From positions 12,338,001 to 12,402,000 of the forward strand of contig OZ024751.1 of the NCBI GenBank assembly GCA_964016885.1: a DNA stretch of 64,000 nucleotides, given 5' to 3'. The translations under genes and the position numbers were made by a program. This document shows, in pieces, positions 7,641 to 62,050 of this stretch. This DNA is from Eledone cirrhosa (Eukaryota). Positions within the stretch are counted from its first letter, which is position 1, and each line of letters opens with the position of its first letter. The notes under the pieces are model-generated. The model saw only the letters and a list, made by a program, of their open reading frames with translations. It was not told where the DNA came from and searched no databases.

Positions 7641-7722
7641 GGTAGCGTGGCCGAGTGGTCTAAGGCGCTGGTTTTAGGCACCAGTCTCTGCGGAGGCGTG
7701 GGTTCGAATCCCATCGCTGCCA
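7641..7722 (+). tRNA. tRNA-Leu, anticodon TAG
   Basis: Acceptor stem GGTAGCG/CGCTGCC plus discriminator A, A-box TGGCCGAGTGG, anticodon arm CTGGT-TTTAGGC-ACCAG, long variable arm, GGTTCGAATCC, and a T6 Pol III terminator at 7731-7736. Confidence 0.97.
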
Positions 7723-13244: not shown

Positions 13245-14785
13245 CTACATACGTACTGGTACATGTATTCATTATTCGTCATATTCAAAACTAACGGTAC
13301 TACCAAATGCGTTATGTTTAAGATATCATGTTTACGCTATCATATATTTATATATGTGTATGGGTATGTACATGCCTCTATCTGTGTGCATTGCTGTGTG
13401 TGCGCGAAATCCTGTGTTCGTTTACATTCTTCTATATGTGTGTGTATTCCTGTACGTGTGGTGGTTATGCTTGTAAGAATATATGTTTAAATGTGCAAGT
13501 TGTGGACGGAGTAAGCATTTATAACAATATAGTAAATGTACTACCTTGAACCAATTAACATTTAAAAGGAAAAATATTAAATATATTAAAAATAACAGCA
13601 TGTGCGTTTGTGTGAATGTATGTGTGTGTAAAATGTATGTATGTGTAAATGTATGTATGAATGTATGTATGTGTAAAAGGAAGGAAGGAATGGTGAAAAG
13701 ACCATAGCAAAACAGCACCTGGCGTTCCATTTGCATGCTGTGTATATATGCGTTTTTCTAAATGTATGTGTCTGTGCGTTTGTGTGAATGTGTGTCTGTG
13801 TGTTTGTGTGAATTGAATGTGTGTCTGTGTGTGTTTGTGTGAATGTATGGATTTGTTTGAACGTATCTTTGTGAGTGCATATTTTGTAAGTGTGTCTGTC
13901 ATTGCACGTTTATATTTATATACTCATATACATAAATATATGCATATACACATACACACATACACACATATATATACATACGCGTCAGCGTGCTGAACAA
14001 ATTCTAGTCTATCAAAAGGAACAATATCTAATATAAAGAAAACCAGCAACAACAACAAGAAAAATTGGTTGCACGTAAATGTTTAACAAGTCAGTTTAAT
14101 TATAACATGGTGGATTCTTGAGGTTTGTTGCAAAACATTGCATGTTCCCTACTGCTTCACTGCAGTATACGAATCTTAACGATCGTGCTCCCCTTGATAA
14201 GAAACCTCATTTGTGTTCCTTCCTTAAATATGCAGAACTGTGGGAAATGTGTTGCGAATTTTGACATACATACATACGTCATACGTTCATATATACAACA
14301 ATATATACATATACATACAAATATATATATATATATTTATATATATGTGTGTGTGTGTATGTATATATATACACACACACATATATACATATATGTGTAT
14401 GTATGTATATGTATGTATGTATATATATATGTATATGTAAATATACATGTATGTATATGATTATATATATGTATATGTATATATATACATATTAGTGTAT
14501 GTATATGTATATATGTATGTATACGTATATATACATATATGTGTATGTATATATACGTATGTATATATATATATATATATATGTATGTATATGTATATAT
14601 ATATGTATGTATATTTATATGTATATGTATATATATATATGTATGTATATTTATATATATATATATATGTATATATACATGTATGTATATGTATATATAT
14701 ATACATGTATGTATATATATATATATATATACGTGTATGTATTCAGGCAACCATCGTCGCCCTTTTGTACAACACTGACACAGGA

Positions 14786-14828
14786 ACGATGTACTAGTTT
14801 CAAGCTTATTAGCTATCGTCAGCATCGT
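14786..14828 (-). ncRNA. Type I hammerhead ribozyme, array unit 1
   Basis: ACGATG-CTGACGA-TAGCT aata AGCTT-GAAAC-TA-GTA^CATCGT. Perfect 6-bp helix I, canonical core, palindromic ACTAGT helix III, GUA triplet. Confidence 0.85.
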
Positions 14829-15203
14829 ATACCTTCCTGCAAGATGAATGAACGTCTGAAAGTATATACTTTCCTTATGTATATTAATTTGCATATCGAG
14901 TGAGTTAATCGGCTGGGCGCCTCGAAAACGATAAATGGAAAAGAATGAAACGAAATTTCATTTCTCACTCTTAGTACGGCTGATAATTAAATGTAAGTAT
15001 GTATGTATACGTACATATATATATGTATAAAGACGTACAGTAGTATGTATATATATACATACATGCACACATATATATATATGTACGTATGGGTTTACCG
15101 AACATTTATTATAATGTCGGTTTGTTTGTAAACAAACAGCCCGAATTACTTCGTACATTGTTCGGCAACCATTGTCGCCTTTTTGTTCAACACTGACACA
15201 TGA

Positions 15204-15246
15204 ACGATGTACTAATTTCAAGCTTATTAGCTATCGTCAGCATCGT
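15204..15246 (-). ncRNA. Type I hammerhead ribozyme, array unit 2
   Basis: As unit 1 but GAAAT-TA-GTA, giving a U:G wobble in helix III. Confidence 0.8.
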
Positions 15247-15633
15247 ATACCTTCCTGCCAGATGATTGAACGTCTGAAAGTATATACTTTCCTTATGTAT
15301 ATTAACGGCTGAGCAGGCTAATTTGCATATCGAGTGAGTTAGTCGGCCGGGCGCACCGAAAACGATAAATGGAAAAGAATGAAACGAAATTTCATTTCTC
15401 ACTCTTAGTACGGCTGATAATTAAATGTAAGTATGTATGCGTACACATATATATGTATAAAGACGTACAGTAGTATGTATATATATACATACATGCACAC
15501 ACATATATGTATGTACGTATGGGTTTACCGAACATTTATTATAATGTCGGTTTGTTTGTAAACAAACAGCCCGAATTACTTCGTACATTGTTCGGCAACC
15601 ATTGTCGCCTTTTTGTTCAACACTGACACAGGA

Positions 15634-15676
15634 ACGATGTACTAATTTCAAGCTTATTAGCTATCGTCAGCATCGT
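15634..15676 (-). ncRNA. Type I hammerhead ribozyme, array unit 3
   Basis: Identical to the unit 2 HHR, 430 bp away. Confidence 0.8.
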
Positions 15677-16103
15677 ATACCTTCCTGCCAGATGATTGAA
15701 CGTCTGAAAGTATATACTTTCCTTATGTATATTAACGGCTGAGCAGGCTAATTTGCATATCGAGTGAGTTAGTCGGCCGGGCGCACTGAAAACGATAAAT
15801 GGGAAAGAATGAAACGAAATTTCATTTCTCACTCTGATACTTAAATGTAAGTATGCATGTATACGTACATACATATATGCATACAGACGTACAGTAGTAT
15901 GTATATATATACATACATGCACACATATATATATGTACGTATGGGTTTACCGAACTGTATACATATATGTATGTACGTATACATACATACTTACATTTAA
16001 GTATCAGCCATACTAAGAGTGAGGAATGAAATTTCGTTTCATTCTTTTCCATTTATCGTTTTCGGTGCGCCCGACGACTCAGATATGTATATGTATATAT
16101 ATA

Positions 16104-16749
16104 AATGAAAAATGGCGAGCTTTGTTGTTGCAAATATAATATATATAAAAATAAAGAATTAGAAATAAAAGCCTGGACTATCCGTCATCAGTGGTCTACA
16201 AATCATCATAGGTATTTCTTCGCATTACAAACCATATACCTCCGGCTAGGGCAATGCAATAACTATATTAAGTTATTGGGATAAAAAGAGTTTGGTGGAG
16301 AAAGAGAGACAGGTAAACAAACACGAATAGTGAGGCAACGTAAAGAGAGGAAAAAATTAGAAAATCAAGTCAATAATTCATTTTGAACATAAGAACGGGC
16401 GAATATTGACGATAGACAAATGACACATCCTGGCAGTGCGAATGTGAGCGAGGAAAGAATTTCGTACGGTGTGGGTCGATGGAGGAAGTGAGAGAGAGGG
16501 TGAGTAGCAGAGAGTGAGAGAGTGAAAGTGTGAGGAAGATGCTAGCCGAGAGAGGGTGACTAGCAAAAGGAGTGAGTGAAAGTAAGAAGGAGAAGGAGAG
16601 AGAAGGGGGAGAGAGAAAGAGGATAGCAGTAAGGGAAGAGAAAAAGACAGGTCACAGCGAAGGGGAAAGCATATATGAATGAAAAATGGCGAGCTGTGTT
16701 GTTGCGAATATGATATATATAAAAAAGAAGAATTAGAAATAGAAGCCAG

Positions 16750-16755
<6 letters not shown>
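16104..16755. mobile_element. About 650-bp element with about 75-bp diverged direct terminal repeats, in (TA)n
   Basis: ATGAAAAATGGCGAGCT.TGTTGTTGC...GAATTAGAAATA.AAGCC.GGACTA occurs at about 16105 and 16679. Confidence 0.55.
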
Positions 16756-16795
<40 letters not shown>

Positions 16796-16821
16796 AACCA
16801 CAGACCCTCCATCTCAACTCA

Positions 16822-16859
16822 CCTTTTGAAAAGCAGAAGAACTGCGAAACCGGTAAAGG
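16822..16859 (+). ncRNA. Hammerhead ribozyme with U3:A8 variant core
   Basis: CCTT-TTGAAAA-GCAG aagaa CTGC-GAAAC-CG-GTA^AAGG, then AATAAA. All three helices pair. Host element about 16791-16932. Confidence 0.75.
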
Positions 16860-16928
16860 AACCAAATAAATATATATATTTAAAAAAAAAATAAGACTCC
16901 AGTTGCATTTTCGATTTCATCTCTTTTT

Positions 16929-16964
<36 letters not shown>

Positions 16965-16967
<3 letters not shown>

Positions 16968-17377
16968 ATAAGAAACGGAGTATCAGTGGTACGACGAATT
17001 AGAATTTATTAGACATATTACAATCGTTTCTCTGGCGACCAGCTCGAGGCACGATCGATGCAATGATCGAACCTGACTCTGAAATCGCAAGATCCTCAGA
17101 TACGTCTCGATTCTACGAAGCAGAGTTTCCAAATGTCCAGTTATATTCGAAGAATCGAGACGTATCTGAGGATCTTGCGATTTCAGAGTCAGGTTCGATC
17201 ATTGCATCGATCGTGCCTCGAGTTGTTCGCGAGAGAATCGATTGTAATATGTCTAATAAATTTTAATTCGTTGTACCACTGATACTCCGTTTGTTATGTG
17301 ATATTATACTCTGCTCTGTAAGAGCATCGAGTTTTCAAATAGCCTACCGCATACGGACGCTTTAAGCATCCCACACC

Positions 17378-17382
<5 letters not shown>
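16965..17382. mobile_element. Fold-back HHR-bearing element
   Basis: 16965-17120 is the reverse complement of about 17148-17302. Flanked by (TA)n. Homologous to 548-790. Confidence 0.8.
17011..17107 (-). ncRNA. Type I hammerhead ribozyme with extended helix II
   Basis: AGACGTAT-CTGAGGA-TCTTGCGA[about 46-nt insert]TCGCCAGA-GAAAC-GATT-GTA^ATATGTCT, then AATAAA. The mirror copy at 17158-17254 (+) has GAAA changed to GAAT. Confidence 0.75.
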
Positions 17383-17442
<60 letters not shown>

Positions 17443-17614: not shown

Positions 17615-17809
17615 TAGGAAAAAGGAAAAACACTCAGGACGCCGACAGCTGACCTGCCGTTTCGACAGCTAGATCCAAGGTGGATGTGGAAACGGCCGGA
17701 GCTCAGCCGTCGGGGTTCTGACTCTTTTCCTATTACCCACTCTACTACTCTAAGTATAGAGTACTCTGGTGCGTTATGGTCCTCCTGGTATCTTACCACA
17801 CCCTCTTTG

Positions 17810-17812
<3 letters not shown>
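17615..17812 (+). mobile_element. Diverged copy of fold-back family F
   Basis: Shares TATTACCCACTCTACTAC.CTAAGTAT.GAGTACT.TGGTGCGTTATGGTCC with the other family F copies. Confidence 0.75.
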
Positions 17813-17865
<53 letters not shown>

Positions 17866-23164: not shown

Positions 23165-23733
23165 GAGATAGTAGACGAATAGTATTGACCAAGGTGATAT
23201 ATCAAGATTGGGGTAAATGTATAGCAATGGGTATATATCGTATGGATAGTAGTGTGAGAGAATGATCAGAGTGAAGGAGAGTGAGTTAAAAAGGGCAGGA
23301 AAGTGAGGGAGAAAGAGTAAAAGCGCGACGTAGAAGGTGGGAAAGAGTAAGACAAAGAGAGAGGGGGTTGAGGGGGGGGGGGGGGGGGTAGCGGCAAATG
23401 TCAGTAAAAATGAGTGGACGAGGGGGTAACAGTTAGGCACATGGAGCCACGAGTTCGAACCCAGATACTAGTTTCGTTGTATTTTCATTGCCATTATAAA
23501 TATATATTCAACAACGCTGTATATATATATATGTATATATATATATATACCGAACAATATGATAAATGTTCGGTAAACCCATACGTACATATATATGTGT
23601 GTGCATGTATATATATATATATATACATACTACTGTACGTCTGTATACATGTATGTATGTACGTATACATACATACTTACATTTAAGTATCACCCATACT
23701 AAGAGTGAGACATGAAATTTCGTTTCATTCTTT

Positions 23734-23835
<102 letters not shown>

Positions 23836-24325: not shown

Positions 24326-24364
<39 letters not shown>

Positions 24365-24366
<2 letters not shown>

Positions 24367-24560
24367 GGAACAAGTATGACCCCGACGGCAGAGCTCAGGC
24401 CGTTTCGTCGGCTATTTTTGGACTGAAATAGCCGTCGAAACGGCTTGAACTCTGCCGTCGGGGTCATACTTGTTCCTATTACCCACTCTACTACCCTAAG
24501 AATTGAGTACTTTGGTGCGTTATGGTCCATCTGGTTCCTTACCACAATTCCTTCGTAATA
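24365..24560 (+). mobile_element. Fold-back family F copy
   Basis: About 55-bp inverted arms (TAGGAACAAGTATGACCCCGACGGC...GCCGTCGGGGTCATACTTGTTCCTA) plus the unique tail. Flanked by (TA)n. Confidence 0.85.
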
Positions 24561-25188
24561 TATATTTATATATATATATATATATATATATAAAGTTTGA
24601 TATTGAAATGGGTTCTACAGGAATAGAACAGTTTCATGAAACAGTTCTAGTTCTGTAGAAAACGATTCTATATTAAAATTGATGTTTACAAACGCCTAAT
24701 ATATTGAGTAACTTGGTAACTGAAATTACCCCCGACTGAACCCGGGACTCACACACTCATCCACACATATATATTTATATAAATATATATTTATATATAT
24801 ATGTATATATATATATTTATATATTTATATGAAATATATTTATATATATATTAGTATGAATATATGTTTATATATATATTTATATATATATATATATATA
24901 TACTTATATATTTATATAAATACATATTTATATATATATATGTATTTATCTATATATATTTATATATTTATATAAATATATATTTATACATATATTTATA
25001 TTTATCTATATATATTTATATATATAAATATAAATATATGTATAAATATATATTTATATAAATATATAAATATATATAGATAAATACATATATATATATA
25101 TATAAATATATATTTATATAAATATATAAGTATATATATATAAATAAATATATATATAAACATATATTTATATATATATAATATATAT

Positions 25189-26990: not shown

Positions 26991-27039
<49 letters not shown>

Positions 27040-27042
<3 letters not shown>

Positions 27043-27231
27043 CGAAGGAAATGTAGTAAGGAACCAGATGGACCATAATGCACCAAAGTACTCAATACTT
27101 AGGGTAGTAGAGTGGGTAATAGGAACGAGTAGGACACCGACGGCTGAGCTCAAGCCGTTTCGACGGCTAATTCCGTACAGAATTAGCCGTCGAAACGGCT
27201 TGAGCTCAGCCGTCGGGGTCCTACTCGTTCC

Positions 27232-27232
<1 letters not shown>
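27040..27232 (-). mobile_element. Fold-back family F copy
   Basis: Same tail in reverse orientation, near-perfect inverted arms at 27120-27232. Flanked by (TA)n. Confidence 0.85.
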
Positions 27233-27270
<38 letters not shown>

Positions 27271-28152: not shown

Positions 28153-28159
28153 ATACATA

Positions 28160-28351
28160 TAGGAAAAAGTATGACCCCGACGGCAGGGTTCAGGCCGTTT
28201 CGACGGGTATGTCCAGAAATAGCTGTAGAAACGGGTTGAGCTCTGCCGTCGGGGGTCATACTTTTTCCTATTACCCAGTCTACTAACCTAAGTATTGAGT
28301 ACTGTGGTGCGTTATGTTCCATCAGGTTCCTTACCACAATTCCTTCGTTAT
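28160..28351 (+). mobile_element. Fold-back family F copy
   Basis: As at 24365-24560. Tail-only fragments also at about 29690-29785 and 31781-31857. Confidence 0.8.
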
Positions 28352-28458
28352 ATTGTACATGTATATATAAATTTATATTTATGCATAATACATCAATATA
28401 AATTTGTATATATATATATATATATATGAATTTTTATATACATATGTATAATATATTT

Positions 28459-29417: not shown

Positions 29418-30111
29418 ACTTCGTATGGTTAAGAAGTTCCAATAGATTCAAATAAATTTGAATATTACATGAAAATATAAAATTATAACATAATGAAATA
29501 TATATCACCAGTTAGGTATAAATATAATATTGTACTTTTGTTTGAATATATATAATATAGTATGCCCATTTTTATATGTAAATCATATAAACATATATAT
29601 ATATATTATTGTGTTTTGCGTTATACATTTCGAAATATAAAATTAAGTTTAGGCATATATATAATATATCGATCTCTCAATGAACATATATAACAAAGAA
29701 AGTGTGGTAAGGAACTAGGTGGACCATAACGCACCAGAGTACTCGATACTTAGGGTAGTAGAATGAGTAATACGAAAAAAGGACATATATATATAGAAAG
29801 AGATTTGAAATTGAAGAAAAATACACAATTTTATTAGATTCATGCTTGGATATATATACGTATATATATATATATTAAGACGCTATATATAGGACACTAA
29901 GAATGTTCTTAAAAGGTTGCTCTATTAATCGAATGGAATCGACGTATGAAATAAAATTAAAAATACATAAAGGCAAATATTTAAATCTCTACGAATGTGA
30001 ACCCTAAAAATATTTTGCATGTTGTCGAGGTACATTCATATAATTTATATATAATTACATTTATATAGATTTAAATATAGACATATATATTCTCTCTCTC
30101 TATATATATAT

Positions 30112-30384: not shown

Positions 30385-30736
30385 ATATACATGCACAAAG
30401 CGTCGTGAGGCACAATTAGTTGAGCGTCATTTCGTTGACAAAGGTTTAAGGAAGCAGTCACTCACTGGGTTCGATTTAATCCAGTTTCACACACCCCCTA
30501 ATTTTTGGTATTGTATTTATATAGGTATTTACATTACACATATACTCGCACAATCCGACATGTATACATGCATATCTATACTCATATATATATATATATA
30601 CATTTATATTTACTTCTATCATTCTATATATATATATTAGATATATTTATATACAATTATATGTGTATGTATATAATTGCATGTATATAGAGAAAGAACC
30701 TTCTGTTTTTATATATTTTTGTATCGATATATAAAC

Positions 30737-30801
<65 letters not shown>

Positions 30802-31313
30802 TATGTATACTAAGCCGTACTAAGAGTGATAAATGAAATTTCACTTCATTCTTTTCCATTTATATATATATATTTATATATTTAGTCATATATATTTATA
30901 TATACGTTAGTTTACATATATATATATATATAAATATATATATGTGCATATATATACATGTGCGTGTGTGTGTCTGCATGTGAAATGTAGATGTCTGGGT
31001 GTGTCGGTCTTTTACCTATGAGAGAGTGAGATTTTATAACAATTGTTTTAGATATATATCAAGAAATTCTCATACTGATGTTTTCATAGATGTAATTCCA
31101 TGAGAGATATATCCGTAAAAAAAACAGGTATAAATAAATATATTTACTTAAACATCCATATGTGTATATATATATTTATTTCTTTCTATACATATGTATA
31201 TAAGCAATTATCTATGTACATACATATATACATATATACACTTTAGTAGTATGTATATACGCACATATATATATATACATATAGATATTTATATGTATAC
31301 ACACACACACACA

Positions 31314-31739: not shown

Positions 31740-32029
31740 ATTAATATATATATATATATATTAATATATATATATATATACCCACTCTACTACCCTAAGT
31801 ATTGAGTACTTTGGTGCGTTATGGTCCACCTGGTTCCTTACCACATTTCCTTCGGTATATATATATACAAATATATTAATAGAGATATATATAGATATAG
31901 ATATGGCTTCTACAGGACCACAACTGTTTCATTGGAAGGAAATCATTGCGAAAGTGCTAGGAATGTAGAATATACTGCTATGTATTGAGTACCTTACTTA
32001 CTGTGGGTAACCCCGATTGAGCACGGGAT

Positions 32030-32892: not shown

Positions 32893-33137
32893 GGTGTATT
32901 CATACATATATATACATTCATATATATATATATACATTCATATATATATATATACATACATATATATATATCTTCATACATACATATATATGTATGTATA
33001 TATATGTATATATATATATATATATATACATATATGTATATATATATATATAAATGGAATAGAATGAAACGAAATTTCATTTCTCACTCTTAGTACGGCA
33101 GTTACTTAAATACATACATAGATAATTATATATATAT

Positions 33138-34127: not shown

Positions 34128-34192
<65 letters not shown>

Positions 34193-34259
34193 AAAAAAGA
34201 TGTAATCGAAAATGCAACTGGAGTCTTATTTTTAAAAAAATATATATATTTATTTGGTT

Positions 34260-34297
34260 CCTTTACCGGTTTCGCAGTTCTTCTGCTTTTCAAAAGT
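34260..34297 (-). ncRNA. Hammerhead ribozyme with U3:A8 core (copy of 16822-16859)
   Basis: Minus strand reads CTT-TTGAAAA-GCAG aagaa CTGC-GAAACCGGTA^AAGG...AATAAA. Host element about 34190-34330. Confidence 0.7.
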
Positions 34298-34368
34298 AGA
34301 TTTGAGGTGGAGGGTCTATGGTTTTTCTCACATATATATATATACATATATATATATGTATATATATG

Positions 34369-47693: not shown

Positions 47694-47726
<33 letters not shown>

Positions 47727-47729
<3 letters not shown>

Positions 47730-47766
47730 TTATGGTCCATCTGGTTTCTTACCACATTTCCTTCGT

Positions 47767-47822
<56 letters not shown>

Positions 47823-48050
47823 CATATATATATATATATATGTATATAACGAAGGAAATGTGGTAAGGAACCAGATGGACAATAACGCACCAAAGTACTC
47901 AATAGTTAGGGTAGTAGAGTGGCTGATAGGAACGAGTAGGACCCCGACGGCCGAGCTCAAGCCGCCTCGACGGCTAATTCTGGACTCATTATTACGTCCA
48001 GAATTAGCCGTCGGGGCGGCTTGAGCTCGGCCGTCGGGGTCCTACTCGTT

Positions 48051-48053
<3 letters not shown>
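47727..48053 (-). mobile_element. Fold-back family F copy plus an inverted tail fragment across a (TA)n tract
   Basis: Full copy at 47847-48053. 47727-47769 is an oppositely oriented tail. Confidence 0.8.
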
Positions 48054-48087
<34 letters not shown>

Positions 48088-51094: not shown

Positions 51095-51280
51095 CATATA
51101 TATATATATGTATTAAAATAACAGATTAAAGTTTAAGCAAAGTATATCTGCTATCACCCTTAACGGGATCATCTGAAACTAACTATTTACTCTACGGTTC
51201 TTATATATTTGATATATATTTATCCTTATCGAGCCCTCTTTGGATTTTAGTTTTCAAATTTATTATTATTACTATATATA

Positions 51281-51547
51281 TGAGTCCAGAATTAGCCGTC
51301 GAAACGGCTTGAGCTCAGCCGCCGGGGTCCTACTCGTTCCTATTACCCACTCTACTACCCTAAATATTGAGTACTTTGGTACGTTATGGTCCACCTGGTT
51401 CCTTACCACATTTCCTTCGTTATATATATGTATATATATATCATATCTCATTTTGTTTGACCCGTTTAGCTTGTTCACATTGAAAACTGCGACCGGTGAA
51501 CTCAGCCACATGAAACCAAAGCAATGAAAAAACCAATCAGGTATTGA

Positions 51548-51597
<50 letters not shown>

Positions 51598-51877
51598 AGA
51601 TTCAGGATCCTGGCGGCTGAGCTCCGGCCGTTTCGACAGTTAGATCTAACTGTCGAGTACCCTGGTGGGCTATGGGCCACCTGGTATTTTACCACACCCT
51701 ACCTTATATATATATATATATATATAGAAGAAAGTATGACCCCGACGGCAGAGCTCAAGCCGTTTCGAGGGCTATTTCTGGACTAAAGTGCTTTCTCCTA
51801 TTACTCACTCTACCACCCTAAGTATTGAGTACTCTGGTGCGTTATCGTCCATCTGGTTCCTTACCACAACTCCTTCG

Positions 51878-51881
<4 letters not shown>
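51281..51881 (+). mobile_element. Cluster of three partial family F copies separated by (TA)n
   Basis: Copies at 51281-51422, about 51595-51705 and 51727-51881. Confidence 0.75.
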
Positions 51882-51935
<54 letters not shown>

Positions 51936-58134: not shown

Positions 58135-58548
58135 GTATGTAAGGTGTGTATATGTGTACTTTGTGTTTTGGTTGACGTGGTTTGGTGAACATATGTGTAT
58201 TTACCTGTAGGTATGTGTGTGCGTGCGTTATATACGTATTTATGTGTGTATATTTATATACGTTTATATAATTATATGTATACACACATGCACACATATA
58301 TATATATATATCTTTTTTTTTTACGTGTATTTGGTGTATACGTTCGTATGTGTGCGGGTACATGTGTCGCACGGGTTTATGTATGCGTGCGTGTGTTTAT
58401 GTGTACGTGCATGTGTATGCATGCCTGGTGGGTGTTTTCGCGTATGCACGTAATAATTGTTGATTTTAATAACTTCTGTCATTTTCGTTCTACTAATTTA
58501 TTTACATTATTCTTAACTCTGAAGCCGAGAATCATTCGGTTTCCCAAA

Positions 58549-58925
58549 TAGCCTTAACCTGGTGCAATCTGCGACTGACCCAGGTTCTGCTGCAGGTCGG
58601 GCTGAGGGGGCCAAACTCCTCAAATACCGGTCGCACTCCGACAGGTTTGCTGTCGTACCCCTGGCAGTGGAGACTTCTGGTGTCTTCGGCCCCAGAGCTA
58701 CCTCCTTACTCACCACCATAGGCGCTGAGTTGGCCAGCCGCATGTTTGAGTCCCGCGAGTTGGAGTGGCTTTTCCAGCGCGTCTCCCTTGCCGTCCTCCG
58801 GGGAACCGCCTTCTCCATTCTGCCCGCCGGGGCTCTGGGTGGGCCCCATCGCGTACCAATACATTAGTTAAATACCATTCTTTCATCTGATATATCTCTA
58901 AATTATATTTTGTACAATATACATT
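58549..58925 (+). mobile_element. CRE-like non-LTR retrotransposon 3' fragment (RLE domain C-terminus)
   Basis: GC-rich island encoding PGSAAGRAEGAKLLKY...VPLAVETSGVFGPRA...WLFQRVSLAVLRG, with the AE..K..KY / P.AVET.G / QR.S.A..RG motifs. Confidence 0.8.
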
Positions 58926-60298: not shown

Positions 60299-60375
<77 letters not shown>

Positions 60376-60380
<5 letters not shown>

Positions 60381-60514
60381 AAGTATGACCCCGAGGGCAG
60401 AGCTCAAGCCGTTTCGACGGCTATTTCTGGACTACTATTTCCCACTCTACTACACTAAGTATTGAGTATTCTGGTGCGTTATGGTCCATTTGGTTCCTTA
60501 CCACAATTCCTTTG

Positions 60515-60517
<3 letters not shown>
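60376..60517 (+). mobile_element. Family F copy, one arm plus tail
   Basis: GTATGACCCCGAGGGCAGAGCTCAAGCCGTTTCGACGGC...CCCACTCTACTAC...CCTTACCACAATTCC. Flanked by (TA)n. Confidence 0.8.
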
Positions 60518-60592
<75 letters not shown>

Positions 60593-61396: not shown

Positions 61397-61899
61397 TCTT
61401 AGTCTTAGATTCTTCCGCGCCATTCGGCGCATCGATCAGTAAGCGGTCGCCAACGGTCACGATCAACGGCATAATTTTCGAGACCGTGTCAGGTGATGCT
61501 GGCTGCCATCAGGTCCTTCCGGAACGTTCGTCGCCAGGTGATCCTTGGGCAACCTCGCCTCCGTTTACCGCCAGGCGGAGTCTAGTTCATCTCTGTTTTC
61601 GAATGCCGTTCATTTGGCAGACGCAGAATATGGCGGCCAGCCAGACGGCACCGACGCTCCGTGACCACTCTCTGTAGCGTCCACGACTCGGCTCTCCGCA
61701 GGATCTCCTCGTTTCGCACTCGGTCGCGCCAGGACACACGAAGGATCTTTCGCAGGCACCGCTGGTGGAATGCGTTTAGCCGTCTCTCTATTTTTGCCGT
61801 ACTCTTCCAGGTCTCGTTCGCATAAAGCACTGTTGGCAGCACGATGCTCTTGTACAGGCGGAGCTTGATCTTGGTGCTAATGCATGAAGACGACCAGAC

Positions 61900-61902
<3 letters not shown>
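61397..61902 (-). mobile_element. RTE-clade LINE 3' fragment (pseudogenised)
   Basis: [25 protein letters not shown]...LNAFHQRCLRKILRVSWRDRVRNEEIL...HILRLP...*TPPGGKRRRG. Contains an internal stop and a (CTAAGA)-type tail. Confidence 0.92.
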
Positions 61903-61948
<46 letters not shown>

Positions 61949-61978
61949 ACATACATACATACATATATACATATATCC

Positions 61979-62050
<72 letters not shown>

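Follow-up and report, generated by a model that had tools for sequence, protein, structure and literature searches.

A dispersed non-coding hammerhead repeat with Penelope-type insertion marks in the genome of Eledone cirrhosa

The 64,000-nt stretch of Eledone cirrhosa DNA analyzed here (contig OZ024751.1, positions 12,338,001 to 12,402,000, referred to as the window) contains a short tandem array with three hammerhead motifs, which in good likelihood represents an aged and mutated insertion of an abundant non-coding hammerhead repeat, namely a non-LTR retrozyme. The corresponding family combines the sequence features of retrozymes with the insertion features of Penelope elements and holds no open reading frame. 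It is very probably a non-autonomous, Penelope-mobilised element, with a Penelope-like reverse transcriptase (RT)/endonuclease likely writing the repeat into (TA)n DNA. The family joins the metazoan non-LTR retrozymes, a kind already known from mussels, corals, and salamanders. A preliminary description of this DNA had read the array as a candidate retrozyme, possibly mobilised by a Penelope-like RT, and this reading was supported at the level of the family by its dispersal, its fixed ends, the pairing of two end sites (S1 and S2), and the ends of coding elements. The features of the locus are as follows:

14301..14742, no strand: TA-rich microsatellite flank, inferred target
14744..15161, minus: unit U1, 418 nt, private 16-nt deletion; canonical S1/S2 end missing
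14786..14828, minus: type I hammerhead motif 1 with the palindrome of the family, ACUAGU, in helix III; cut predicted after 14792
15162..15591, minus: unit U2, 430 nt, U1/U3 mosaic; inferred local unequal crossover
15204..15246, minus: type I hammerhead motif 2, copy of motif 3; predicted cut after 15210
15365..15427, minus: tail delimited by S1 (about 15427, unit position about 165) and S2 (15365, unit position 227), the fixed 3' end sites of the family; contains a purine/pyrimidine hairpin
15528..15550, minus: hairpin downstream of the ribozyme, with compensatory changes between subfamilies
15592..15955, minus: unit U3 (unit positions 59–430), with which the main arm begins; 5'-truncated, private 10-nt deletion
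15634..15676, minus: type I hammerhead motif 3, helix III variant AUUAGU; predicted cut after 15640 (GUA)
15955..16073, plus: inverted second arm, unit positions 130–244; runs past S2, atypical end

The three co-oriented minus-strand hammerheads of the preliminary description were confirmed, sharing the sequence ACGAUG-CUGACGA-U-AGCU(AAUA)AGCU-U-GAAA-(C/U)UAG-UA-CAUCGU. The conserved core, helices I–III, and the GUA site of a type I retrozyme hammerhead are all present, and the core pattern was matched three times in the window, compared to a mean of 0.00 in 100 shuffled sequences. The predicted cuts lie 418 and 430 nt apart. This head-to-tail spacing within TA-rich DNA was likewise reproduced, a tandem repeat being reported by TRF at 14885–15955 (period 430, 2.5 copies, 94%). 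The search with hammerhead models that had been proposed earlier returned no Rfam hammerhead match for the U1 ribozyme region (14740–14990, E up to 10), nor was one present among the 150 of 552 whole-window matches listed, which were dominated by TA hairpins; the identification is therefore based on core sequence and pairing.

Helix III had been characterized as near-palindromic, which holds for motifs 2 and 3 (AUUAGU), whereas motif 1, like the family, carries the perfect palindrome ACUAGU. AUUAGU is seldom encountered (2 of 28 reference copies) and changes the predicted energy of helix III in the dimer from -4.8 to -0.2 kcal/mol; this helix is predicted to be weakened in two of the three ribozymes of the locus. 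Furthermore, helix I of motif 1 was disfavoured in the local fold model around U1, and in minimum-energy folds the ribozyme core was paired with helix III bases. The U-U at position 10.1/11.1, previously noted as a caveat, is indeed present. It is not fatal, because it represents the family state (103 of 104 motifs, most loci having been chosen by a pattern containing U·U), occurs in coding Penelope families as well, and is found at the helix II base of the axolotl hammerhead HHR_Amex2, whose cleavage was described as weak for the single ribozyme and good for the dimer (PMC7229834). One subfamily carries C·A at this position.

To place the locus in its genomic context, the 3.0-Gb assembly was searched for family patterns, a check that the preliminary description had recommended. 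The unit turned out to be dispersed over many contigs and not a single local duplication, with 10,743 exact matches of the 31-nt core (0 for the reversed-pattern control) and 11,409 matches of a sister-subfamily pattern (control 0), while the tail pattern and the pattern just downstream of the cut site gave 14,141 and 9,230 matches, respectively. Such a dispersed high copy number is characteristic of retrozymes. At least four subfamilies were distinguished, which differ in helix I, loop II, and position 10.1; four of them have retained the core as well as helix I and its extension. In 28 chosen sequences, 99.2% of the cells of the structure pair. Six pairs were changed on both sides compared to 3.8 in shuffles (3 of 500 as high), few events being behind these counts; helix I accounts for one of them (A-U, G-U, U-G), and the other five belong to a hairpin approximately 100 nt downstream. 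As judged from these alignments, the conservation of core and helices and the double change in helix I suggest that the ribozyme has been under selection; it is probably active in the source copies of the family. The circular monomer is predicted to be highly self-paired, as expected for retrozymes (z = -4.2 and -5.3, 40 shuffles). However, folding alone is not strand-specific, because the antisense strand folds strongly too (z = -3.6).

Units of the sister subfamily (L111:7786-9501, L151-L180) are approximately 456–540 nt long, their length tracking an internal (TA)n tract, and those of L111 are identical over the ribozyme region. A five-ribozyme array (L088) with alternating 420/422 spacing, in which units 2 and 4 as well as 3 and 5 are identical, appears to be the local amplification of a dimer. 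Three further fragments of the family reside in the window:

23549..23735, plus: 5'-truncated, ribozyme-free family fragment; stops approximately 7 nt ahead of S2 and is followed by (TC)n(TA)n
30736..30863, plus: short 3' family fragment, S2 end into (TA)n
33050..33111, minus: short 3' family fragment, S2 end into (TA)n

The three units of the locus feature a GC content of 34–37%, and open frames of at least 100 aa over the unit were low-complexity ones only. As stated earlier, the array ends in an inverted partial copy. The main arm halts a few bases inside the next unit, and neither arm reaches an S1 or S2 end. U2 groups with U1 at every informative site between unit positions 132 and 235 and with U3 at every site from 236, two columns (82–83) at the ragged start of U3 being set aside. 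This is the pattern that an unequal crossover between U3 and U1 would give, and U2 would accordingly be a later local recombinant of its neighbours. Most differences between U1 and U3 are private, the 16-nt deletion of U1 being found in none of the 28 reference copies. Compared to the majority of these copies, which were chosen for likeness to U3, the distance is 3.8% for U1 and 4.4% for U3, and one rare variant (2 of 28 copies) is common to all three units. Together with the putative crossover, the private differences and the shared rare variant suggest that the original insertion likely consisted of the inverted arm, U3, and U1 from one template, with U2 added later and the canonical ends decayed. 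An alternative, in which a new insertion would have landed in register at a U1 belonging to an older subfamily, was discarded, as the differences are mostly private and the mosaic fits a crossover. Likewise, no support was obtained for a locus dedicated to the release of monomers of 430 and 418 nt, a release that had previously been envisaged, considering that U2 appears to be a recombinant, the 418-nt length results from a private deletion, and two of three dimer helices are predicted to be weakened. It is unlikely that the locus is still active. An 85-nt direct repeat (91%; 16097–16181 and 16671–16755) adjoins the inverted arm and is possibly another partial-tandem element that clipped the end of this arm.

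The insertion pattern of the family was deduced from 28 loci nearest to U3 (L003–L030) and 40 regions of contig C1 (L061–L100), taken from the first 100 core matches listed. Two fixed sites approximately 60 nt apart take 63 of the 82 ends of ribozyme-bearing arms (33 at unit positions 158–182, S1; 30 at 215–230, S2), 19 arms end elsewhere, and the 5' ends are scattered. These counts are alignment-based; motif-based calling mislabelled some arms, and the alignment-based calls mislabel a few as well (early alignment stops, L088). Most of the end contexts printed pass directly into (TA)n, and loose TA ends at 15365, corresponding to S2, were detected in 62–72 contigs per run (three genomic-looking contig sets from one sample). 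Divergent two-armed insertions accounted for 37 of 86 clusters. Both ends were classifiable in 22 of these 37, the other 15 being unclassifiable, and all 22 combined S1 with S2, with no same-site pair. According to our own arithmetic, the chance of this outcome would be about 2e-7 were the ends independent at 50:50. In all 11 insertions whose two arms both contain a ribozyme, the partner ranked within the closest quarter of copies.

Furthermore, of 30 matches to the pattern immediately downstream of the cut site, 28 extend through the site, several stemming from the same arrays, which indicates a template that was either ligated or had stayed uncut. The 5' ends did not cluster at this site (1 of 30 ends within 2 nt). 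Among 51 arms, 45 carry a single ribozyme, three carry two, two carry three, and one carries five. Thus, 5' truncation, partial tandems, and adjacent inverted copies, all known as Penelope insertion marks, were found in the family. The tail at one end only, with its two start sites, was also found there, but not at this locus. An LTR layout was not seen, and target site duplications are masked inside (TA)n.

The genome offers candidate sources of a mobilising protein. In total, 10,596 GIY-YIG candidates were detected, and long frames with RT and GIY-YIG domains (Pfam), e.g., one of 938 aa, are present. The coding RT + GIY-YIG frames carry a CxxxxCxxC linker of the Neptune/Nematis type as described in PMC8557442. 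Two coding families, which carry hammerheads of their own, end at two sites downstream of these motifs (distances of 63 nt and approximately 55 nt), and the two-armed coding loci L112 and L116 represent S1+S2 combinations. The ribozymes of these families are similar in geometry to that of the unit, with U·U at the helix II base and a palindromic helix III. The two-end pattern matches both the published Penelope tail at one end only (PMC8557442) and the two internal RT start sites reported to define this tail for Poseidon (PMC11167929). In locus L101 (G000:C1:145868000-145877500), hammerheads at both ends, 4,979 nt apart, flank the 938-aa frame, so that this locus is apparently a full-length Penelope-like element. 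Fragments of the 3' end of the L101-type coding family were also observed within (TA)n in the window (16793–16931, plus; approximately 34160–34330, minus); they carry a hammerhead variant with U3·A8 for C3·G8 and end at the first end site of that family.

From these data, we infer a route comprising transcription, dimer cleavage, ligation, and both-strand priming by a Penelope protein. A multi-unit transcript would cleave itself as a ribozyme dimer into units of approximately 430 nt, which would likely be ligated into circles. A Penelope protein, probably acting as a dimer, would nick both strands of (TA)n, and copying would be primed at S1 on one side and at S2 on the other, passing through the ligated cut site and resulting in two divergent arms. 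The anole Poseidon protein has been described to cut and extend both strands and is a predicted dimer (PMC11167929). Speaking against the route, only one of nine Xenopus retrozyme dimers was reported to be cleaved in vitro (10.64898/2026.07.22.740005). The overall numbers of putative RNA-editing scars were 105/8,834 for A>G and 58/7,579 for T>C, compared to 30 and 25, respectively, at singleton sites.

Regarding the template, a circle and an uncut multimer are both viable, because the mussel and axolotl data, in which retrozyme repeats give circles (PMC7229834), and a published model with a circle (PMC4209133) fit the former, whereas the anole in vitro result fits the latter; the chances of a circle being the template are about even. 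The more specific proposal that a single circular retrozyme RNA serves a Penelope dimer as template at both ends of the break, with two fixed starts and rolling through the ligated site, is put forward tentatively, its likelihood being somewhat below even. If true, the S1+S2 pairing, as in coding Penelope elements, would be the genomic record of the proposed mobilisation step of retrozymes, and the inverted arm and one-sided tail of Penelope elements would go back to a single two-strand priming event.

Alternatively, the same Penelope-mobilised family may be copied from an uncut multi-unit read-through transcript, with the ribozyme acting late or being idle and no circle being involved, an account that is possible but on the less probable side. 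In vitro, the anole Poseidon protein acted mainly on uncut RNA and did not require cleavage (PMC11167929), possible source arrays exist (6 of the 51 sampled arms are multi-unit, and many occur in the sister subfamily), the core is sequestered in monomer folds, and the crossing of the cut site fits equally well. However, an idle ribozyme is difficult to reconcile with the core and (extended) helix I kept in four subfamilies and the double change in helix I, and the related mussel and axolotl repeats yield circles.

The preliminary description had set a retrozyme against tandem pLTRs of a Penelope element. These are not real alternatives, as the non-coding unit itself carries Penelope insertion marks. 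A narrower version, in which the copies would be what is left, after 5' truncation, of the pseudo-LTRs of a coding Penelope-like element with an ORF outside the sample, is quite improbable. It would explain every insertion mark, since each is a Penelope mark, as well as the similar ribozyme geometry, U·U, and palindromic helix III of the coding families, and the sample covers only a minor part of the family, which numbers more than 10,000 copies. However, the long arms wrap back into the unit itself and not into an ORF. The suggested check for attachment to a Penelope ORF was negative: the unit was not a terminal repeat in any of 50 GIY-YIG loci (taken from 150 listed of the 10,596 candidates), no single ORF with RT and GIY-YIG was found in the unit or joined to 133 arms, and these arms revealed no shared non-unit upstream breakpoint or foreign upstream sequence. 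At one locus (L221), the end of a Penelope ORF lies upstream in the same direction, but is cut off by an inverted piece. Two other candidates for a parent were discarded, as the Penelope-like ORFs near L061, L067, and L069 are only neighbours separated by (TA)n, and a variant with C10.1 and a GUU site proved to be another non-coding subfamily. Finally, a satellite-like repeat spread by DNA recombination alone, with a vestigial ribozyme motif, is hardly credible: local processes of this kind are suggested by the recombinant U2 and by the alternating identical units of L088, but fixed 3' and variable 5' ends, the S1+S2 rule, and the dispersal over many contigs would be unexpected, and the 22 of 22 S1+S2 pairs already disfavour it.

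The whole-window repeat finder output was dominated by microsatellites, and further elements are embedded in (TA)n. A two-armed inverted element with an arm identity of 90% lies between (TA)n tracts at 16956–17390 (a relative at 541–798); the motif scan revealed no hammerhead in it, and a similar sequence follows the unit in L221. Approximately ten copies of another short non-coding element with internal inverted arms, often located beside the retrozyme at other loci, were found in (TA)n:

47726–48060, copy of the short non-coding (TA)n element
27036–27239, copy of the same element
24359–24562, copy of the same element
28154–28353, copy of the same element
51280–51426, copy of the same element
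17693–17816, copy of the same element
31782–31861, copy of the same element
51719–51884, copy of the same element
60368–60521, copy of the same element
29687–29776, copy of the same element

In addition, a tRNA gene (7641–7722, plus) was identified above the Rfam threshold (58.7 bits), with the anticodon UAG (Leu) read from the sequence. The frames at 58523–58867 (plus) and 61582–62016 (minus), which we take to be CRE-like and RTE-like, resemble the C-termini of non-LTR retrotransposon proteins, with no Pfam match over the cut-off.

Compared to metazoan non-LTR retrozymes as described in PMC7229834 and 10.64898/2026.07.22.740005, the family shares non-coding units (known range 150–450 nt) of low GC content with a type I hammerhead, the head-to-tail arrangement, thousands of copies per genome, and a self-paired predicted circle. 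In contrast to them, most arms hold one ribozyme, and (TA)n targets, two fixed ends, and divergent arms appear to go beyond these descriptions. In the 50 GIY-YIG loci and 133 arms covered here, a parent pLTR was not found; in Xenopus, by contrast, matches to known elements, almost exclusively Penelope-like ones, were reported for 24 of 57 families (10.64898/2026.07.22.740005). With EN+ Penelope-like elements, as presented in PMC8557442, PMC11167929, and PMC4209133, the family has in common 5' truncation, partial tandems, an adjacent inverted copy, a one-sided tail, AT-rich or microsatellite targets, and, downstream of a hammerhead whose helix III is palindromic, a pair of start sites; it differs in the lack of an ORF in the unit and in a tail of approximately 60 nt instead of 30–40 nt. 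With a 6-bp helix I plus extension and a 4-bp helix II, the ribozyme resembles the canonical type I more closely than it does the minimal motifs of Penelope elements, which carry G10.1-C11.1, unlike the U10.1·U11.1 found here. Non-autonomous Chlamys elements such as MRC1 (PMC8557442) are comparable in being non-coding and Penelope-like, with pLTRs and multicopy head-to-tail insertions.

Retrozymes are to be expected in cephalopods, because mussels have them. A published cephalopod retrozyme or octopus hammerhead family like this one was not found, although the supplements of PMC7229834 and PMC4209133 may list motifs; the main text of the Octopus vulgaris repeat paper contains neither 'ribozyme' nor 'hammerhead'. 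Li, Clavereau and Pollet (2026) argued that animal retrozymes are non-autonomous Penelope derivatives (10.64898/2026.07.22.740005), and Penelope mobilisation has so far been proposed from co-occurrence and pLTR similarity in that preprint and in PMC7229834. It is the rule at the family level that is of interest, the locus itself being aged and ill-suited to assays. The family brings tens of thousands of predicted ribozyme motifs into one genome and adds insertion-level evidence to the proposed mobilisation, namely a two-end rule that is the same as that of coding Penelope elements in the same genome; furthermore, it names a short RNA with two predicted start sites, which is testable with purified protein.
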